DNA of 64,000 bases from Thermoplasmatales archaeon SW_10_69_26 (GCA_003009755.1 PXUB01000042.1:55821-119820), one strand, 5' to 3'; positions 6,354-59,830 are shown, counted from the first letter of the stretch. Notes: generated by a model not told the origin, from the letters alone. Translations and numbers: made by a program.

Positions 6354-7133
6354 TCACAAGATCAGGTAGATGCCGAGCCCGATCAGAGCCACCGCGATCA
6401 GGACTTGCGCCACGCGGCCGGGCGAGGGCAGGATGGGCTCCACCATCTCGCGCTCGTCGCCTTCCGCGGCGCCTGCGGCCACCGTGATCGTCTCGGGGCC
6501 ACCGGCGCGATGATCGGTCACGTTCTTGGACTCGCCGTAGCGGAGGAAGAAGAACGTGGCGAACAGGACGATGAAGATGATGACGAAGGAGATGACACCG
6601 ACCCAGTAGGCGAGGTAGTCGACACCGAAGTCCTCGATGCCGCCCTCCTCGCCGCCACCGGTCGCGCCGACGGCGAGCGTGCCCTCCATGCCTTGGGACT
6701 GGTGACCGGGAACCGAGCAGATGTAGCCGACCTCGCCCTCGTAATCCTCGCCGAACGTGACGGTGAGGTTGTACTCCTCACCGGGGTCGAGCAGCGGCGT
6801 CTTGACCGCCTCGCCGTTGCCGTCTTCGCGCTGCCGGACGTCCTCCTCGGCGTGTTCGAAGTCTTGGCTGAGGAACGCGAAGTCGTGGGCGACCCCCCCG
6901 ACGTTGACGACGTGGAAGGTCACCTCGGTGTTGGGGCCGACCGTCATCTCTTCGGGATGGGTCGCGAACGGATCGTCCTGGCCCGGACCCAAGCGAACCT
7001 CGATCGTGGCTTCCGTGGGGCCGGTGAGCTCGTCCTCGGCGGCGTCGCCCTCCTGAGCGGCGACGAGGCCGGAGGCCAACGCGAAACCCGCGATCACGGC
7101 GACCAGGAGGGCGCATCGGGCTCGGGTTCCCAT
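6354..7133 (-). CDS. Membrane-anchored blue copper (cupredoxin) protein
   Basis: Signal peptide; type-1 Cu ligands AHDF...YICSVPGHQSQGM; two C-terminal hydrophobic segments. Confidence 0.88.
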   Translation of the reverse strand: MGTRARCALLVAVIAGFALASGLVAAQEGDAAEDELTGPTEATIEVRLGPGQDDPFATHPEEMTVGPNTEVTFHVVNVGGVAHDFAFLSQDFEHAEEDVRQREDGNGEAVKTPLLDPGEEYNLTVTFGEDYEGEVGYICSVPGHQSQGMEGTLAVGATGGGEEGGIEDFGVDYLAYWVGVISFVIIFIVLFATFFFLRYGESKNVTDHRAGGPETITVAAGAAEGDEREMVEPILPSPGRVAQVLIAVALIGLGIYLIL

Positions 7134-7187
7134 GATGACGTCTCGCCGAAGCGAGTCGACCTATTAGACTTTTGCTTAGCCGACCCC

Positions 7188-7354
7188 CGGCTGTCTGGTT
7201 AAGCAGGGGCCGCGAAGGACACGAAGGATCGCCATGGCCACGAAGGGCCTGTGACTCGCCGCCGGGCGGCGTTGTCACGGCAGCTGCTCTCCTTTGTGCC
7301 CTAGCGTCCCTTCGCGTGCTTGGTGGTCCCCCCGTTTGTTATCCTTACAGCGCG
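7188..7354. mobile_element. MITE-like palindromic element, copy A
   Basis: Flanked by a perfect 10-bp direct repeat AGCCGACCCC (7178-7187, 7355-7364). Imperfect inverted ends CGGCTGT.../...ACAGCGCG. About 90% identical to the reverse complement of 58632-58799. Confidence 0.85.
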
Positions 7355-7491
7355 AGCCGACCCCACCCTCGGGAGGGTCTCCCTGTGCCGGATCGCCAAC
7401 CCGTTCCGGCGACGCCGCGGGGGCTGTGGCTCCCCGTGACCCCGAAAACCTAAAGACCTCATCTGCGGGTCGTGCATGTGGAGGCGAGCCA

Positions 7492-25536: not shown

Positions 25537-28500
25537 AACGCGCGTTCACCATCTTGCTCGCCCTGATGACGATCGTCCCGTCGATCGTGCCCGCTGCCGC
25601 CCAGCAGCCGGACCCGGGACCGGAGGATCCGGCCCCCGAACAGCCGCCGGAGGAACCCCCCGAACAGCCGCCCGAGGAGCCCCCCGAAGAGCCGCCCGAG
25701 GAGCCCCCGGAAGAACCGCCCGAGGAGCCACCCGAGGAACCACCCGAGCAACCTGACCCGCCCGAGTCGCCCGCGGACGAGTCCCCGCGCGCGACGTACT
25801 TCTCGGAGGACTTCGACGACCTGTCCGGGTTCGCCCAGCTGCAGCTCGAGGGTGACCGCAACAGCGAATCCCTGTGGCACGTCGAGCCGTTCGGCGAGAA
25901 CGGCTCCAAGGCCGCCGTCCTGAGCGACAGCCAGGGCCTACCCCGCGGCCTCCACCAGGGGATCGCCAGCCCGGCGGTCGACCTCACGCCGATCCCGAGC
26001 CTCGTCCAGGACCAGACCGCGAACAGCGCCGCCGAGGCCGGCGTCGAGCGCGGCAGCCGCGCCAGCCAGGAGGCCGTGCGTAGCGCGGTCGCGTCCGAGG
26101 ACACGCTGGACTACTTCGACGACCTGAGCCGCAACCCCGTGTTCGAGATCGGCGACCTGACGCTGCCGCAAGGCCAGGCGTCGCTCACCCTCATCCACAG
26201 CTTCAACTTCGACCGGACCCAGAACGAGCAGGGCGAGGCCGTCAGCGGCTTCGCCGTGGAGGCCCGAACGCCCGGCGGGGAGTGGACCCCGGTCCAGGCG
26301 TCCGCGCTCGTCGAACCGGCCGAGGAGGCCGACGCCCCCGGTCCCCGCAAGCAGGCCGAAGGCGTCAACGTCCCCGGCAACGTCAACCCGTGCAGCATCG
26401 AACAGTCCACCCAGGACATCCTGGATTCGCTGCCCTTCCGGGATGTCGACGAGGAGGCCATCCCCGGCTACCAGGAGTGCGACCAGGATGGCCTCTCCAC
26501 CGAGGCCGAGACCGAGGCCAACCAGTACCTGATCACGATCGGGGACACCACGTTCCAGGTCTCCACCGGTCCGGCCAACAACGGCACCGTCCAGGACGAG
26601 GGCGCGCCGCTGTTGCCCAACGCCTACATCCAGCCGCTCGACCAGCGCGGCTACACCGGCACCAGCGACAGCGACGACGACGGCCAAGCTGACGTCGTCG
26701 GCCACCAGTTCGATCTCTCCCCGTGGGCCGGCAAGCACGTCGAGCTTCGGTTCCGCGCCGGGACCAGCGCCGTCACCGAGGTCCCCGGCGGGTTCTGGGC
26801 CATCGATCACGCCGAGATCAAGGCCCCCGCCCGCTCGGCCGACCTCCGCGTCAACCTGACCGCGCCCAGCCTCGACCACGAGGCCCCGCCCGAGCGCGCC
26901 CTGGACGACCGCGGCCTCGAGGAGCAGTTCCCGGTCCGCGCCGAGATCCAGAACGTCGGGTTCACCGCTCAAGACGGTCCCTTCGAGGTCGAGTTCACGA
27001 TCCGGCAGGACGGCGAACCCGTCGACCAGACCGTCGTCGAGGCCGACCCCGGCCAGCTCGGCTTCCTCAACACGACCACCGTCCAGTACAACCTGACCGC
27101 GCTCGGTAGCACGCCCTACCAGATCTCCGCCGAGATCGTCAGCCAGCACCCCGACCAGCGGCCGACGAACGACGCGGACGCCGACCTGCTGCCGGTGGGC
27201 GTCGACGAGAGCGCATCGATCGACATCCGACCGGCCACCACGGTGACCGAACCCGGCGAGCTGTTGTCGACCACCGTCGTCGTGGAGCCGGATAGCAACG
27301 TCCCGATCAACGGGACCCTCAGCCTCACAGCTTTCCCCTACGACCCCGAAACCCAGTTGCCGATCGGCGACGGGAAGATCGAGCTGGGCGAACAGCAGAT
27401 CCAGCTCCCCCGCGCCGCCGACAAGCACCCGGCCGGCGTCGAGGACGCCCTCGAGAGCGCCGAGTTCACCCGCACGCTCCCCAAGGGTGCCTACCTGCTC
27501 GTCGCCCAGATCGGTGACTCGACCTCGCAGACCCCCATCGGTGTCGGCACCCCGCCGCCTCCGGTGCTCAGCGAGGACTTCGACCGGGTCGATCCGGGCC
27601 CCGAGAGCTTCTCGCTGACGACCGACAGCGGCGAGTGGACGGCCCGACCGGCCGGCGACGTCCGCCCGGTGCCGAGCGTGATCGATCCCGGCAGCATCGT
27701 CAACGGTAGCGCCTGGGTCCCGCTCTCGCACGAGTCCACGACCCTCCGCCCCGAAGGTGGCGAGAACGTGACCTCGGGATCGGTGAACCAGCCCAGCCTC
27801 CCCGCATGCCCCACCCCGCTCATCCTCAGCGTCGTCGTCGACGAGGCCGGCGTGGAGTGCGAAGTCGGAGAGGGCGGGGATCGCGTCGGAACACCGCTCG
27901 TGCTGCGAAGCCCCGAGGGCACCCAACGCATCCACGCGATGGCGACCGAGGTCCCCCTCCACGACGCATCCGAAGCCAAGCTCGAGTACCTCTCCAGCCT
28001 CGTCCCGCCCAAGGGTGGGTCCGGGGTCAGCGAGGCGCGCGTGTACGTCGCCACCGACCAGGACACGCAAGATCTCGAGAGCCAGCTCACCAACCCCGAG
28101 CGGTGCGCCCCGGTGAGCCAGGCGGTCGACGAGACCGCGCCCAACCAGACCGACCTCCTCGCGCAGGGTCCCTGCGAGACCGTGAACCCCGAGCCCCGGG
28201 AGCGCTTCCTCGTCCAATCCGTGTTCGACCTCGAGGAGATCATCCGATGCGAGCTCCCGAAGGCGCTCGAGACGGGTGGCGAAGCCGTCACGGACGTCAC
28301 CTGCCCCGGCCAGAGCGGCGGATCCCAGGCAGCCTGTCCGAGCACCGGCGGTGCCGGGGCCGAGGGCGAGGTCTGCACCGTCTCGGAACCGACCCAGCTG
28401 GCCGCGCTCGCCCCGATGCTCAGCGGAACCCTCGTCGCCCGACACGACGAGGCCCACACGTGGCAACGGAACGCCGTCGATCTCGACGCCTGGGCCGGCC

Positions 28501-42200: not shown

Positions 42201-45200
42201 AGGACGGCCGCAGCCTGCTGGCGTTCAACGCGACCCCGCCCGCCGGTGCCGAGCCCGGGAACGCGACCGTGTCCTTCCGCGTGCTCGACCCCCTCGGCCC
42301 CGGCGGCGTGCTCCCCGTCGACCTCGGCGTCGCCCGCGGCGGACAAGCCGAGATCTCGACGCGCGAGCGCCTGGGCGTCGCCATGGGCAGCCCGACCGTG
42401 CTCCCGCTGACGATCCGCAACGTCGGGAACGAGCCCTTGTCGGGGGACATCGTCCTCGAGAACGCGCCCGGCAACGTCACGCTCACCACGCCGCCCTTGC
42501 CGACCCTGGCGCCCGCGAACGGCACGACGACGCTGCCGGCGACGATCACCGCTCGCGAGAGCGTCGAGGGCCCGGTCTCGGTCGGCGTGCTCGACGGTAG
42601 CCGCCGAGCCGGGAACACGACCGTGGACCTCGTCGCCGATCGCGCCGAGATCTCCCTCAGCCCGAACCTCATCGTCCCCCAAGAGGATCCCAGCCCCGGC
42701 GAGAGCTACCCCGTGACCGTTACCGTCAACAACGACGGCCGCGTACCCGTTCGCAACCTCACGGTGGCCCTGCTGGAGAACGACGCTCGCCTCGCCGACC
42801 GCGCGATCGAACGCCTGCCCGCGAACGGTTCCGCGACGGTCACGATCGAATGGCTCCCCGACGAGGAGGTCAGCCGCTCGGACCTCAGCGTCCACGCCGA
42901 CCCCGACGGCCAACTGATGCAAGACCGCGAGGACGACAGCCTCGGCTTCGACGATGCCAACGAGACGCCGGGTCCGGGCCTCGTGTTGCTGTTGCTCTCG
43001 CTGGCGGTCCCCTCCGGGCTCAAAGGCACCTGGCAGCTGTTCAGCCGACGCGAGCGCTGGCTCGCCATCGGCGGCGTCCTCCTGTTGCTCGTGCTGATCC
43101 CGGCCCTGTTCATCCCGGCGATCACCGTCGACCAGTCGCCGGCCGACGCCAGCACACCCGAGGAGTTCAACGACACCGACGCCGACGGCGTCTCCGACGC
43201 CGCCGAGGTCACCCGCTACGGGACCGACATCCAGAACAACGACACCGACGAGGACGAGGTCCCCGACGGCTGGGAGGCCCAGTACGCCCGCTTCAACCAG
43301 ACGTTCAGGGATTTCCGCCCCGACCCCGGTCGCCCCGACGCCGGCGAGGACATCGACGAGGATGGCCTCACGAACCGTCGGGAGTTCGAGGCCGGGACCC
43401 ACCCCCACGAGTCCGACACCGACGAGGACGGGTTCCCCGACGGGTGGGAGGTCCGCTCCGGGCTCGATCCGACCACGGCCACGCCCGGCGACGAGGACTG
43501 CTCCGGCAACGGGCTCACGAACCAGGAGGAGTTCGAGCTCGGCACGTTGGCGTGCCTGACCGACAGCGACCGCGACGGCATCCCCGACACCGCCGAACGA
43601 GCCGGCGAGTGGACCTTCCAGGACGAGGACTACGAGTTCGACCCGACCGACCCCGCCACGCGGTCCACCGGCGGCTCCGGGTCCCCCGACGGGTGGCTGC
43701 TCGTCCACGACCTCGACCCGCACGTCAGCGAACACTCGACCGCCGACCCCGACGGGGACGAGCTCTCCACCACGCGCGAGTGGAAGCACACCGAAGCTCG
43801 CGGCTTCGCCGATCCCGGCAACTGGTCTGAGGGGCTGGACCCGACGACGGCCGACACGGACGGCGACGGCCTCCCCGACGGCTGGGAGCTCCGCAACGGG
43901 CTCGATCCGCTGGACGCCGAGGACGGCAGCCTCGACTCCGACGAGGACGGCCTCACCAACGGGGCGGAGTTCCAAGCCGGCACCGATCCCGAGGCCGCCG
44001 ACAGCGACGGCGACGGGCTCTCGGATGGCGAGGAGGTCGACGGCTACGAGATCACGGTCGACGACGAGACGACCCAAGTCCGTTCCAACCCGCTGATCGG
44101 GGACACCGACGGCGACGGCCTCACCGACTTCCAGGAGCGCGAGGGCCGCGTCGAGGATCGCAGTTTCCCCGCGACGAACCCGCTGAGCAGCGACACGGAC
44201 GGCGACGGGCTCTCCGACGGCGGCGAGGTGTTCGCCCTCTCCGGGCCCGACACGCTCGATCCGACCGTCTCCGACAGCGACAACGACGGCCTGCTCGACG
44301 GCGAAGAGTGGGACCTGTGGATGGGGAAGGCCGAGCAAGCGCGCTCGGACGCGGGCTACGCCGCCCGCATCGACGCGCAGACGCGGCGCTCCGTCGACGA
44401 CATCCCCGCGATCCTCGAACCGACCGGCGACCTCGACGACGACGGGATGCCGAACGTCCTCGACCCGAACGCCGACACGCCCGAAGACCTGTCCTCCCTG
44501 CCCGAAGCCGAGCAGGAAACGCTCGTCGACGGCGAGGAGGCCTTCCCGCCCTCGCGGTCCGGACGCACCCTGCCCACCAGCGACCCCTCGCTGCGGGACA
44601 CCGACGGCGACAGCCTGCCCGACAGCTGGGAGCGCGAGTACACCGAGTTCTCCTCCGACGTCGGCGGATGGCTGCTCGACCCGCGCCGAGCCGACAGCGA
44701 CGGCGACGGCACCCCCGACAACGAGGAGGACCTCGAGACCGCCTGCTACAGCGACCGAGAGATCGAGGGCGACGGCGTCCCCTGGTTCAACTTCGCCTAC
44801 ACGAACGAGCTCGAGCTCGAGCGCGGCACCGACCCCCTCGCCTGCGACAGCGACGAGGACGGGCTCCCCGACGGATGGGAGATCGAGGGCGCTCGCCGCA
44901 TGCAGTCCTCCGGGCTGCAGGTCCAGCTGAACCCCAACAGCGAGGACAGCGACAGCGACGGCACGCTCGACGGTGACGAGACGAGCCCGACCGGTGTCCC
45001 CAACACCGACGCGATCCTCTGGGCCGAGGACCCCGCCTGCACCGACGGCGCCCCGAAGACCGGCAAGGGCGTGTGCCTGTACCGCTGGGGCGGGGGCGAC
45101 CCGGGCGTCCCCGACCGCTCGATCCCCACCGACCGCACCGACACGTCGTTCGTCCAGATCGCCGACGACCGATGCGACCCCGGTGAGCGCTGCCACCTCG

Positions 45201-48200
45201 TCCGCGCCCAGCTCGCGTTCGCTCACGAGGTCGCCCTGCAGACGGACCCCAGCCTCGTCGACACCGACGCGAACGGCTACGTCGACGCCTGGGAGGTCCT
45301 GCACGGGCTCGACCCCACCGATCCCACGTCCCCGCAGGGGGACAGCGTCGACACCGACCCCGGCCCCTCCCAGGGAGACGGCCTCACGATGCGAGAGGAG
45401 TACGAGGCCGGCACCGACCCCTTCAACCGCGACACCGACCAGAACGGGCAGGGGCTCCCCGACGGCGTCGACGTCGATCCCCTGGACCCGACCGACGACT
45501 CCGGGGACTGCGACTGGGACGGCATCGACGACCCCGAGGAGGCACGCCTGCCCGGCGCCGAGCCCGGCACCCCCGACACCGACGGCGACGGCCTGGTCGA
45601 CGAGAGCTACTCCCCCGAGGGCTGCCGGATCGACGGCGAGATCCTCCGCGAGCCCACGCCCGGCGTGGATCTCATCGCCATCCCCACCCCGAACGAGGAC
45701 CCCGACGACGACACCGACGATTTCCTCGGCGAAGCCGACATCGGGACCGACGCGGCCGCGTGGGAGACCAACAACGACGACCTCCCCGACGGATGGAAGG
45801 CCCTCTACGACCTCGATCCGGGGACCTCACACACCACCAGCGACACCGACGGCGACGGGATGAAAGACACCACCGAGTACGAGCTCGGCCGCCCCGCCTG
45901 GTGGCACGAGGGACCGATCGAGATCGACGGCGAGATCGAGGACGGTCACGGCGCCTGGTGGTTCGGCTCCGATCCGCGCTCGTCCAGCACGCGCGACCTC
46001 GACGGGGACGGGCTCGACGACGGCCTGTTCGACCCCGAACCGCTGAGCCCCGACAACGACTGCCAGCTGCCCGACGCCTGGTCGCTGCCCCCCGCCTGGA
46101 ACGAGGCCCACTGCCTCTCCGAGAAGCCCGCCGAGGAGGACCTCGAGGAGGTCCTCACCGGGCTGCGCCAGCTCGCCTACGAGCACGTGTTCACCGCCGA
46201 CGATCCCGACGCTCGACGCTCCGCCGACGAGGCGGCCGACGCCGTCGAACTCCACACCGAGGATCTGCAGATCACGCCGGAGGTCCTCTCCACGCACGAG
46301 CCGTTCAACGTCACCGTGCCGCTGTGCGCCGAGTCCGGCGATCGCTGCACGCAAACCGACGACCGTCCCCCGCTCGTGGGCATCTACGCCGTGACCAAGA
46401 AGGGCGCCGACCCCAACCCGAAGGAGGACCCCCTGCTGTGCGTGATCGACCCAGCGACGGACGGCGAGCCCTGGGTCGCCGACACCGAAAGCGACGGAAC
46501 CGCCCACGTCGAAACCGACGCCTGCCCGTTCGAGCCCGGGCAACGCACCCTCACCGACGACACGGACCCGCTCGTCCTCGCCCCCCACGCCCACGGCACG
46601 CTGCGACCCGGCGGCTCGTGGACGATCGAGGACGCCGATCTCGTCCCCGGCAGCCAGCTGCGCCTGGCCGCCTGGCCCCTGCCGACGAAGGTCGGGTCGA
46701 CGCCGCTCGTCGCCGACCAGACCGAGGAACCCGAGACCCCGGCCGTCGTCTCCCAGACCCCGGCCGCCGAGGGCGTGCTCTCCGTTCGCGACGACCCCGT
46801 GCTCGAGGCCGGCGAGGACAAGGAGGTGACCGTGCTTTTGCGGGACCGGGCCGGCTTCGTGATCCCCGACCGCCCGGTCGAGGCGTCCTGGAACGACGCC
46901 GAACCCGAGCGCCAGCTCGTGGACAGCCGCGGACGGCTGAACCTGACCCTCGACGGCATCGCCACCGACGAGCCGACGACCCGTCCGCTCAACGCGTCGT
47001 TCAGCGGATCCGGCGTCGTCGAAGGCACCGAGCGGACGTTCCCGCTCCCCGTCCGCGTCGGCTCCACGATGCGGCTCTCCGTCTCCCAGGGCACCGCGCC
47101 CGGCCAGCTCCCCGCCGAGGTGTCCCTCACCGACACCACCGGCACCAGCCTGTCCCAGCGACCGGTGACCGCCACGGCCCAGCTGCCCGGCGAGGGGACC
47201 GCGAGCGCGAACGCCACGACCGGGCCCAACGGCAACGCGACGGTCTCGATCCCGTTGCCCGCCGGCACCGACCCCGGCCAGGCGAAGGTCTCCGCGTCCT
47301 TCGCCGGCGACGACGAGGCCGCACCGAGCACCGCCGAGGGCCTGGCCGACATCCGCGTCGACCCGCAACTCGAGCTGCAGGCCCCCGACGAGGCGCGCCT
47401 CACCGAGGGCGTCCGTCTCACCGTCAACCTCACGCACCCCAACGGCGACCCGGTCGCGCCCGCGCCCGGTGAAGCCTTCCAGATGGTGTTCCGCCTCGGC
47501 TCGCTCGAGGAGACCCGCAAGATCGTGTCCGCGCCCACCAAGGGCCAGATCACGCACGTCTTCCCCAGCGGGCCCGATCTGCCGCTGGGCACCAGCTCGC
47601 TCGAGGTCGAGCTCCGCGATGGCCGCTTCAACCCGGCCTCCAGCGTCAGCGACGAGGTGACCGTCCGCAGCACGGTCGACACCGAGCTGTCCACCGACGT
47701 GCTCGGCGTGGGCGTCGACAACAACGTGACCGTCGAGGTTCGCGATGCACTGGGCCGACCGATCGACGACGCGTCCGTGACCGTCGACGTGCGCGAGGCC
47801 ACCGCCACCGCTACCACCGGCACCCGCGGCGAGGCCCCACTTGCCCTGTCGCTGCCGCTGTCGAGCCAGCGCGGACCCGCGAGGGCGACCGTCGACGTCG
47901 ACGGCACCAACCGCACCGTGCCCTCCTCCGAGGACGTGGACGTCACCGTCACGCTCGGCACCGAGTTCCGCACGTCCCCGACCGTCACCGGCTCGCTCGA
48001 CGGGTTCGATCTGCAGGGCCGGCTGGTCACCGCCACCGGCGAGGGCGTCTCCGAGGCCCTGGTGCGCGTCACCGGCCTCGGTTCCCTGGACATCGTCACC
48101 GGGCCCGACGGCGGCTTCTCCGCCCAGCTGACGCCACCGCCTGGCACCCAGCCCGGCAACCAGACGCTCACCCTCGCCTACGAGGGCGAGGACACGCTGG

Positions 48201-58032: not shown

Positions 58033-58629
58033 ATGCACGTCAAGGACGAGGTCCGCCTGATCGGGTTCGACGAGGGCCCGTTCACCTTCGAGGATACCAC
58101 CTGCCCGCTGGCCGGCGTCATGACGCGCGGCGGCGGCTACCTGGAAGCCGTGCTCGTGGACGAGATCACCGTCGACGGCACCGACGTCGACGACACCGTG
58201 ATCGAGCTGCTCGCCGACAGCTCCCTGCTCGAGACCGCCCAAGCGATCGCCTTCCAGGGCGGCACGCTGGCCGGGTTCAACGTCCTCGACCTCGCCCGCC
58301 TGCACCAGACCCTCGGCCTGCCCGTCCTCGCCCTGACCGAGGACGAACCCGACCCGCCGGCGGTCCGGCAGGCCCTGAGGGACACCGTCCGGGACCCCGA
58401 CCGGCGCATCGAGCTGCTCGAAGCCCAGCCCGTGCACCCGGTCTCGCTGGACGAGGGCACCATCCACATGCGCCACGTCGGCGGCGACCACGACCAGCTG
58501 GCCGAGCTCGTCCGCGCCCACACCGTGCGCGGCCTGCGCCCGGAACCGGTCCGCATCGCCGGCCTCGTGGCTCGCGCCCTCGCCCGCGGCTCCTCCACCG
58601 GGACCCAACCCCCCACCGAACCGGACTAG
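58033..58629 (+). CDS. DUF99 family protein (endonuclease V-like)
   Basis: IGFDEGPF, ITVDGTD, GGTLAGFNVLD, PEPVRIA. Confidence 0.85.
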   Translation: MHVKDEVRLIGFDEGPFTFEDTTCPLAGVMTRGGGYLEAVLVDEITVDGTDVDDTVIELLADSSLLETAQAIAFQGGTLAGFNVLDLARLHQTLGLPVLALTEDEPDPPAVRQALRDTVRDPDRRIELLEAQPVHPVSLDEGTIHMRHVGGDHDQLAELVRAHTVRGLRPEPVRIAGLVARALARGSSTGTQPPTEPD

Positions 58630-58631
58630 CC

Positions 58632-58799
58632 CGCGCTGGAAGGAAGAAACGGCGGGGGGCCACCAAGTACGCGAGGGGACGCCAGGGCACAAAGAAGAGC
58701 AGCTGCCGTGACAACGCCGCCCGGCGGCGAGTACACAGGCCCTTCGTGGCCATGGCGATCCTTCGTGTCCTTCGCGGCCCCTGCTTAACGAGACAGCGG
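58632..58799. mobile_element. MITE-like palindromic element, copy B (inverted relative to copy A)
   Basis: Flanked by CGGACTAGCC (58622-58631) and CGGGCTAGCC (58800-58809), 9/10 match; reverse complement matches 7188-7354. Confidence 0.85.
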
Positions 58800-58837
58800 C
58801 GGGCTAGCCTGCCCTCACCTTTTTGCCGGCGACCCCG

Positions 58838-59830
58838 ATGGCGGCTGCGGTGGCCGAACGACTCGTCCGCTCCCGAGGCTCGACCTCGCCCGATCACGGT
58901 GCCAAGCCCGCCAAGCGGCCCGTGGACGAGTACGTCCGCCGGGGAGCCGTCGTGCTCGACAAGCCCGAGGGCCCCTCCAGCCACCAGGTCGCCGCCTGGG
59001 TCCGCGACATCTTCGACGTGGACAAGGCCGGCCACGCCGGGACCCTGGACCCCAACGTGACCGGATTGCTCCCGATCGGGCTCGCCGACGCCACGAAAGG
59101 CCTGGAACCGCTGAAGGCCCAGGACAAGGCCTACGTCGGCGTCATCGAGCTTCACGACGACGTCCCCCGCAACCGCATCGAAGAGGCCTTGTCCACCTTC
59201 ACCGGCGACGTCTACCAGCGGCCGCCCAAACGCAGTGCCGTGAAACGCCAACTCCGGGTGCGCCGGATCGACGACTTCGATGCGATCGAGATCGACGATC
59301 GCCGCATCCTGGCCCGCGTCGACTGCGAGGGCGGCACCTACATCCGCAAGCTCGCCCACGACGTCGGCACCTACCTCGGCGTCGGCGCCCACCTCGACGA
59401 GCTGCGCCGCACGCGCGTCGGCCACATCACCGAGGACCGGGCCGTCACGCTCCACGACGTCAAGGACGCCTGGGAGGAGTTCAAGCAGACCGGCCGCGAC
59501 GACTGGTTGCGCGAGGCCGTGATCCCCTTCGAACGCCTGCTCGACCACCTGCCGCGGATCACCGTGCGCGACACCGCCGTCGACGCCGTCTGCCACGGCG
59601 CCCCGCTGGCGATCCCGGGCGTGCTCGACATCGAGCGCACCATCTCGGCTGGCGACCAGGTCGTCCTCATGACCTTGAAGGGCGAAGCGGTCGCGCTCGC
59701 CGAAGCCGAGAAGACCGCCGTCGAGACGATCATGCAGGAGACCGGCGTCGTCGCCCGGCCCCACCGCCAACTGATGGACGAGGGCACCTACCCCCAGCAC
59801 TGGGGCGAGGACGAAGCCGAGGACGCCTGA
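58838..59830 (+). CDS. cbf5: H/ACA RNA-guided pseudouridine synthase Cbf5 (TruB family, PUA domain)
   Basis: LDKPEGPSSHQV, GHAGTLDP, YQRPP.RSAVKRQLRVR, GTYIRKLAHD, ELRRTR, MTLKGEAVA. Confidence 0.95.
   Translation: MAAAVAERLVRSRGSTSPDHGAKPAKRPVDEYVRRGAVVLDKPEGPSSHQVAAWVRDIFDVDKAGHAGTLDPNVTGLLPIGLADATKGLEPLKAQDKAYVGVIELHDDVPRNRIEEALSTFTGDVYQRPPKRSAVKRQLRVRRIDDFDAIEIDDRRILARVDCEGGTYIRKLAHDVGTYLGVGAHLDELRRTRVGHITEDRAVTLHDVKDAWEEFKQTGRDDWLREAVIPFERLLDHLPRITVRDTAVDAVCHGAPLAIPGVLDIERTISAGDQVVLMTLKGEAVALAEAEKTAVETIMQETGVVARPHRQLMDEGTYPQHWGEDEAEDA

Follow-up and report, generated by a model that had tools for sequence, protein, structure and literature searches.

Within the IS6/IS26 family, the MITEs recorded in ISfinder are, according to the available text of PMC7986276 and PMC6807381, only MITEBth2 and MITEHarch3 (227 and 336 bp), one of which bears a haloarchaeal-style name. 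The element described here resembles them in being short and gene-less, in possessing IS6-type ends and in presumably being moved in trans by an IS6-type transposase. Compared by description and not by sequence, it differs in its length of 168 bp, its palindromic character throughout, its 9-bp target duplication and its 47 copies. A target preference of MITEBth2 or MITEHarch3 goes unmentioned in the available portions of the same two papers. The longer archaeal 'IS6' elements (ISH14, ISH15, ISH29, ISPfu1/2/5, ISMja1 and others) span 700–850 bp and carry one ORF of 206–237 aa (PMC6807381, Table 5, in the part available), and the accessible part of a P. furiosus re-annotation gives 17–33 IS6 copies. 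As in the MITE, ISfinder records 9-bp duplications for ISH15 (ends CG/CA) and ISPfu5, as relayed in the available text of PMC6807381. The candidate partner IS of the MITE is like these archaeal elements in its size, its single ORF, its DDE transposase with E--F---K-R and W---F signatures and the TGT at positions 6–8 of its ends; it is unlike them in that its closest named relatives are 25–34 % identical, its tips read CS/CG and not GG and its transposase contains a 17-residue acidic insertion.

Insertion directed at promoters has been described for DDE transposases of bacteria. TnGBS ICEs, the ISLre2 family and the ISKra4 group insert 15–17 bp upstream of the −35 box, those members whose inverted repeats are near-perfect do so in both orientations and the authors propose a contact with the initiation complex (PMC3942029, available text). 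As far as they are described there, these elements are like the MITE in combining a DDE enzyme with a fixed distance upstream of promoters and, where ends are symmetric, with both orientations; unlike the MITE, they belong to a bacterial Mutator-like transposase superfamily and address sigma-A promoters, not BRE/TATA. In yeast, Ty3 (and also Ty1 and Tf1) aim their integration at the transcription-initiation complex and thereby spare genes from insertions; the eukaryotic factors have homologues in archaeal TBP and TFB. Ty3 and Ty1 (Pol III) and Tf1 (Pol II) differ from the MITE in using eukaryotic retroviral-type integrases, and there is no sequence relationship. Already known, then, are IS6-type MITEs, common archaeal IS6-like ISs, 9-bp duplications and bacterial promoter-directed DDE transposition. 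A literature search in full-text article bodies, taken together with the available text of PMC7986276 and PMC6807381, returned no report of promoter-directed insertion by archaeal IS6-like elements.

The DNA that we analysed is a stretch of 64 000 nucleotides from Thermoplasmatales archaeon SW_10_69_26 (hereafter the window), which forms part of contig C42 in a 2.82-Mb genome of 49 contigs that is 95 % complete. The presence of one TFB gene and one TBP gene in the genome and of an archaeal-type cbf5 next to one of the insertions identifies the genome as archaeal. A sequence-only reading of the window had reported two inverted copies of a palindromic element some 51 kb apart, and both the repeat finder and a base-by-base reading of the two sites bore this out: 7184–7253 matches 58734–58803 over 70 nt (96 % complementary) and 7254–7357 matches 58629–58732 over 104 nt (87 %). 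The whole window holds no other long inverted pair of comparable quality. The features at the two sites are listed in Table 1.

Table 1. Copies A and B of the MITE in the window, their target duplications and their neighbouring genes and motifs
Feature	Position	Strand	Detail
MITE copy A, 168 bp	7187..7354	+	ends CCGGCTGT...ACAGCGCG
Left 9-bp target-site duplication, copy A	7178..7186	.	AGCCGACCC
Right 9-bp target-site duplication, copy A	7355..7363	.	AGCCGACCC, identical to left
BRE/TATA-like motif, leftward gene of copy A	7160..7173	-	putative promoter role
Plastocyanin/azurin-family copper protein, promoter-side gene of copy A	6354..7133	-	ATG 54 nt from MITE end
MITE copy B, 169 bp	58632..58800	-	read directly and by BLASTN
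Target duplication, copy B	58623..58631	.	GGACTAGCC; includes TAG stop codon (58627-58629) of upstream Endo_dU gene
Second target duplication, copy B	58801..58809	.	GGGCTAGCC; 8/9 identical to GGACTAGCC
Endonuclease dU gene (PF01949, Endo_dU)	58033..58629	+	3' end within copy B target duplication
T-run (TATA-like) upstream of cbf5	58820..58824	+	begins 20 nt from copy B end; putative promoter role
cbf5-type pseudouridine synthase (DKCLD, TruB_N, PUA)	58838..59830	+	possible starts ATG 58838 or GTG 58850

Copy A occupies a divergent spacer. Counted outwards from its left end, an A-run lies at positions 14–17 and TCTAATAGG at 19–27, so that the register described below is held towards the leftward copper-protein gene; the TATA-like motif of the rightward gene is ~80 nt away from the MITE. 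At copy B, the candidate starts of cbf5 fall at +38 (ATG) and +50 (GTG) from the MITE end, and the spacer is so short that the target duplication takes in the stop codon of the Endo_dU gene. ORFs that overlap the MITE are spurious and represent read-through from the flanks only, the 168-bp element itself being without coding capacity.

Three further repeat regions were seen in the window. At 43100–45900, a very large acidic ORF region holds a dense array of ~13–30 diverged repeats with D-x-D-x-D-G-x-x-D-x-x-E-like units, which we take to resemble thrombospondin type 3/calcium-binding repeats. A tandem 12-nt repeat extends over 120 nt at 25633–25752 (seven overlapping matches) and encodes a proline/glutamate-rich linker, and the stretch 2150–2992 contains a ~118-nt direct repeat in four copies (72–97 % identical) together with a ~231-nt pair.

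The expectation of the sequence-only reading that more copies would exist genome-wide proved right. BLASTN of copy A against the whole genome returned 47 copies or fragments, every one of them in a unique flank, and one solitary 21-nt left end. The consensus built from 36 complete copies is 168 bp long; mean identity to it is 94.7 % (range 90–97 %) and pairwise identity 91 %, and the corresponding mean divergence of 5.3 % gives no sign of very recent movement. These 36 copies made up the flank table, the other 11 of the 47 having been set aside before counting (six 5′-truncated, two incomplete at the 3′ end or running off a contig, two in a composite on contig C6 and one beside an N run). The target duplication, initially read as 10 bp, is 9 bp: in the 9-bp register it is perfect in 20/36 copies and has at most one mismatch in 29/36, whereas the 10-bp register is perfect in only 8/36, and the tenth matching base at copy A is a C that is the MITE's own first base. 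A shift of the register by one base accounts for some of the seven exceptions. As a control, flanks were re-paired between different copies, which gave 0/36 perfect duplications and 1/36 with at most one mismatch; the earlier interpretation of the sites as independent insertions by staggered cuts thus holds across the family.

The ends of the MITE read 5′-CSGGCTGTCT...ACAGCGCG-3′, with terminal inverted repeats CSGGCTGT and CGCGCTGT. The two halves align with each other end to end, so that the whole element is an imperfect inverted repeat, and the RNA fold has z = −4.6 on either strand. Variation is distributed unevenly along it: the left half (positions 13–84) varies by 1–3 % between copies and several stretches of the right half by 5–9 %; subfamilies, or a constraint that differs between the two ends, could be behind this. 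The six 5′-truncated copies were considered as parts of a longer element, and this was ruled out, as their upstream sequences are unrelated coding DNA.

Several copies have unusual arrangements. At C38:104296–104466 and C29:70403–70571, each MITE carries the other's duplication (CCTCCCGGC and GCCCACCGG); promoter-like motifs stand on either side of one of the two and are absent beside the other. Recombination between copies, replicative inversion and an assembly chimera would explain these swapped duplications equally well. At C6:21089–21390, a MITE truncated at about position 130 is fused head-to-tail to a full copy, and a single 9-bp duplication (GGGTTCCCC) bounds the pair. The solitary left end lies upstream of the window at C42:10145–10165, is 100 % identical over its 21 nt and has a TATA-like TTTTCGTATAGG next to it; a deletion or an excision may have left it behind.

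Outside this genome, the MITE was not found in 40 relatives searched, where the single match (29 nt, E value 3e-4, in relative G010) is at chance level. A conserved 27-mer of the MITE had 0 exact matches in the contigs of species-representative genomes and 0 in those of JGI metagenomes, and BLASTN against PLSDB plasmids returned no match. We looked for empty alleles in the contigs of four halite metagenome runs over a 20-kb stretch with three copies and saw none: the contigs break at the MITEs, where depth spikes tenfold, and among 15 of the 62 joints on this stretch none skips a MITE. In five genomes of the same family, genes are 65–76 % identical and the orthologous spacers are too diverged to align; the corresponding spacer in one of them (G005) is ~290 bp long and unrelated.

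The sequence-only reading had seen no transposase in the window; across the whole genome, relatives of the transposase described here are absent from the window's contig and match only on contigs C36, C37, C38 and C41. That reading had also pointed to longer elements with the same ends and an ORF as worth seeking, and a search for the MITE end motifs outside the known copies recovered three of them, ~790 bp each, on C38, C41 and C36, in addition to two fragments on C37. The IS measures 790–795 bp between its inverted repeats, its inverted ends match at 13/16 positions and it encodes one 238-aa ORF. The copy on C38 is intact; that on C41 is frameshifted by single-base gaps in the coding region, and that on C36 is without its left end. 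The left ends of the IS (C38, C41 and the copy in the related genome G001) and of the MITE have 19/25 terminal bases in common.

The 238-aa protein appears to be a DDE transposase of IS6 type. It matches the IS6-family model NCBIfam NF033587 with E values of 6e-21 and 1e-23 (75–84 bits, under the curated cut-off of 125) over profile positions 84–199 of 202, the catalytic part; Pfam assigned no transposase family to it. Archaeal IS6 members have the signatures E--F---K-R and W---F after the catalytic E (Harmer and Hall, PMC6807381, available text), and the partner transposase reads ETWFGLLKER and WAQAF at these places. For the archaeal branch of the IS6/IS26 family, a length of about 700–900 bp and terminal repeats of 15–20 bp with GG tips and a cTGTt core are expected. 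A TGTC-type core at positions 6–9 marks IS6-type terminal repeats in the available text of PMC7986276 and PMC6807381, and both the MITE and the IS have TGTC at positions 6–9, although the sequence-only reading had not recognized the ends as those of a known archaeal IS family. Their tips are CG/CC, not GG, and GG tips are missing from many archaeal members (Harmer and Hall, PMC6807381, available text). The family norm of an 8-bp duplication is not followed either, with 9 bp at the MITE and 9 bp (8/9 identical) at the IS of G001. The closest named relatives, transposases of DDE or IS6-family type with 25–34 % identity, come from haloarchaeal plasmids. In the GC-rich subclade formed by the present genome (G000) and G001, the 17-residue acidic insertion lies at about residues 96–112, after the first catalytic D and before the next conserved block; it is missing in a 41 %-identical relative from G210.

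The idea of a non-autonomous element mobilized in trans gains support from the gene-less MITE and the terminal bases that it shares with a candidate helper. None of the three IS copies in the genome has a visible duplication, one is missing its left end and another is frameshifted, which we count against a helper that is still active today. Judged from these sequence comparisons, the ~790-bp IS6-like IS is most likely both the source of the MITE and its mover in trans.

Both strands of the MITE fold as a single long, imperfect hairpin, as would be expected of a REP/BIME-like or PATE-like palindrome moved by an HUH enzyme (IS200/IS605 or RAYT) or of structured regulatory RNA genes placed by promoters. 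We consider both very improbable. Site-specific 9-bp duplications are found throughout the family, and we know of no HUH-moved elements that make such target duplications; the MITE ends match a DDE-type IS, and the copies lie in both orientations relative to the neighbouring gene. Rfam returned no match to the MITE at a permissive threshold and none to the whole window at the gathering threshold. We also considered the hairpin as a conserved RNA structure and rejected this: across the 59 pairs of the consensus hairpin, 183 base-pair cells are mutated, 47 of which still pair and only 7 of which changed on both sides, so that compensatory changes are absent, and change is as frequent at paired as at unpaired positions (4.5 % versus 4.0 %). 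The palindrome is inherited, not maintained.

The main point, absent from the sequence-only reading, is the position of the MITE relative to promoters. In a loose test, 30/37 complete copies have an AT-rich heptamer (at least 5 A/T) starting 14–22 nt from one end, compared with 13 % of random genome positions and 22.5 % of random intergenic ones. The consensus of the 31 flanks with such a heptamer consists of the duplication at positions 1–9 (GC-rich, without a recognizable motif), six bases that are mainly C/G, A16 A17, two C/G and then T20 T21 T22 W23 W24. A strict test looked for AANNTTTWW, with 6 or more of its 7 specified bases required, at 60 positions per flank in all 74 flanks. Its 29 matches all start at positions 14–18, 16 of them at 16, and none starts elsewhere up to 60 nt; 21/37 copies qualify, against 0.26 % of random positions and 0.9 % of random intergenic ones. 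The copies that fail number 7/37 in the loose test and 16/37 in the strict one.

On the motif side, called start codons cluster 41–63 nt from the MITE end, the gene calls being those of a crude GC3-based caller. Upstream of 517 called ATG-start genes of the genome, A is enriched at −35/−34 and T from −31 to −27. Motif and spacing agree with those beside the MITEs, and we read the AT-rich motif there as the probable BRE/TATA of mostly leaderless genes. The end facing the motif is the left one in 14 cases and the right one in 17, and both orientations of the MITE occur. The gene on the other side lies at distances from 2 nt to >1000 nt.

The register recurs at the IS ends. Flanking the C38 IS on the left are AA at 16–17 and TTTAA at 20–24; the C37 fragment has AA at 16–17, a T-run at 21–24 and an ATG at +51 beyond its right end; and at the C41 copy the register is off by 1–2 nt. 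Three other IS ends in the genome have no promoter-like flank. In G001, which belongs to the same family and another genus, the IS transposase is 78 % identical and the right flank has AA at 16–17 and TTTT at 21–24. A 45 %-identical IS in G013 has a 9–10-bp duplication, AA at 15–16 and a T-rich box at 19–26, and a 28 %-identical IS in G016 has no promoter-like flank.

A scan of metagenome contigs gave 46 loci, 26 of which were full-length and analysed, yielding 20 distinct ISs with clear ends. Their transposases are 34–48 % identical to the partner transposase, and four of the ISs have perfect 8-bp duplications. In the 39 flanks of these environmental elements, A stands at positions 14, 15, 16 and 17 in 23, 23, 30 and 21 flanks and T at 19, 20 and 21 in 23, 20 and 26; W alternates up to position 26 and C/G is back at 27. 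Four haloarchaeal plasmid relatives (25–34 % identical) were also inspected. Two fit the register, one with a perfect 8-bp duplication and AA at 16–17 and the other with AA at 15–16 and TATTTG at 19–24, and two are without confidently set ends; that the plasmid relatives share the register is suggestive only. The distance from element end to TATA (19–20 nt) is thus conserved between relatives that duplicate 8 bp and relatives that duplicate 9 bp.

Could such a pattern arise from random insertion followed by purifying selection, which in a compact genome would purge copies from coding sequence and core promoters? The genome is dense, with ~82 % in called ORFs, the spacer of copy B is short enough for the duplication to hold the upstream stop codon and the copies, ~5 % from their consensus, are old enough for selection to have acted. 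Selection, however, gives a boundary and not a point such as the single narrow cluster of strict matches, and the strict test is passed by only 0.9 % of random intergenic positions. On its other flank, a copy often has free spacer measuring from tens to hundreds of nt, and unrelated IS copies in other genomes and in metagenomes keep the same register. Selection alone cannot produce a peak 1–2 nt wide, and we regard this explanation as improbable.

We favour, at a probability of roughly 80 %, promoter-directed integration of a 168-bp gene-less MITE that most likely descends from the ~790-bp IS6-like IS and is moved by it. The transposase would bind the roughly 20-bp ends and expose their 3′-OH groups, which would be joined to the target DNA with a 9-bp stagger. 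In front of apparently leaderless genes, this stagger would lie ~42–50 nt upstream of the start codon, with the BRE just downstream of it and the TATA box 10 nt downstream, so that the core promoter and the coding sequence stay intact and the MITE may point either way. From sequence patterns we infer that this transposase moves the MITE and that the AT-rich motif functions as a promoter. By analogy with IS26, movement may pass through a replicative cointegrate resolved by recombination (PMC7986276, available text); the pair with swapped duplications is compatible with such a route and no proof of it.

How the site would be recognized is a separate matter, on which we lean towards promoter DNA bound or bent by TBP/TFB and away from bare sequence; the BRE-binding core of TFB would adjoin the cut site. 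A complex prediction for the transposase and the TFB core of the genome's single TFB scored 0.51, compared with 0.00 for the best of three controls, with at least 97 % contact agreement between runs and a partner pLDDT of at least 79. The mark used is passed by 58/80 solved complexes and 2/110 mismatched pairs, and scores of 0.60 or below include only 7/80 solved complexes plus both passing mismatches. By the tool's rating, a pass of this kind is wrong in most cases, save where the contact was already likely on other grounds. The prediction thus hints weakly at a contact between the transposase and TFB. The only TBP gene (L132, G000:C4:10620–11093, minus strand) matches the second TBP repeat over 67/85 profile positions, and its ORF extends into an arginine/proline-rich tail (293 aa in total); a frameshift in the assembly could account for this shape.

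Alternatively, the same MITE and IS6-like partner may be at work with a transposase that reads naked DNA, either as AA..TTTWW or as intrinsic shape, and does not touch TBP, TFB or the initiation complex. This is a serious possibility, less likely than not yet well within reach. The register is set by a sequence motif in GC-rich and AT-rich hosts alike, protein contact is backed by just the weak complex prediction and archaeal ISH6 elements are reported to prefer an AT-rich motif (PMC3942029, available text). Against it, the duplicated 9 bp are GC-rich and without consensus, so that, whichever way the element points, recognition of naked DNA would have to act 10–15 bp to one side of the cut; the flanking motif matches promoters in its degeneracy; and the TFB prediction, weak as it is, leans the other way.

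Returning to promoter-directed integration, a broader claim would be that a whole clade of archaeal IS6-like transposases, along with their MITEs, docks on the pre-initiation complex (TFB/TBP on BRE/TATA) and cut one to two helical turns upstream. We put this forward tentatively, at a little under even odds. If true, the docking clade would be an archaeal DNA-transposon counterpart of yeast Ty3 and of bacterial TnGBS, and the 47 copies would form a natural map of the promoters that were occupied while the element was active. Promoter-directed integration itself, if it holds, would let an archaeal case join the few known promoter-tethered mobile elements, and a compact 2.8-Mb genome would tolerate ~47 insertions because a safe position spares its genes and core promoters. 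The element ends could then be used to mark promoters in an uncultured lineage, and the register could serve promoter-proximal insertion tools in archaea. The MITE and its partner would offer a simple system for how a transposase reads a TBP/TFB-bound promoter.
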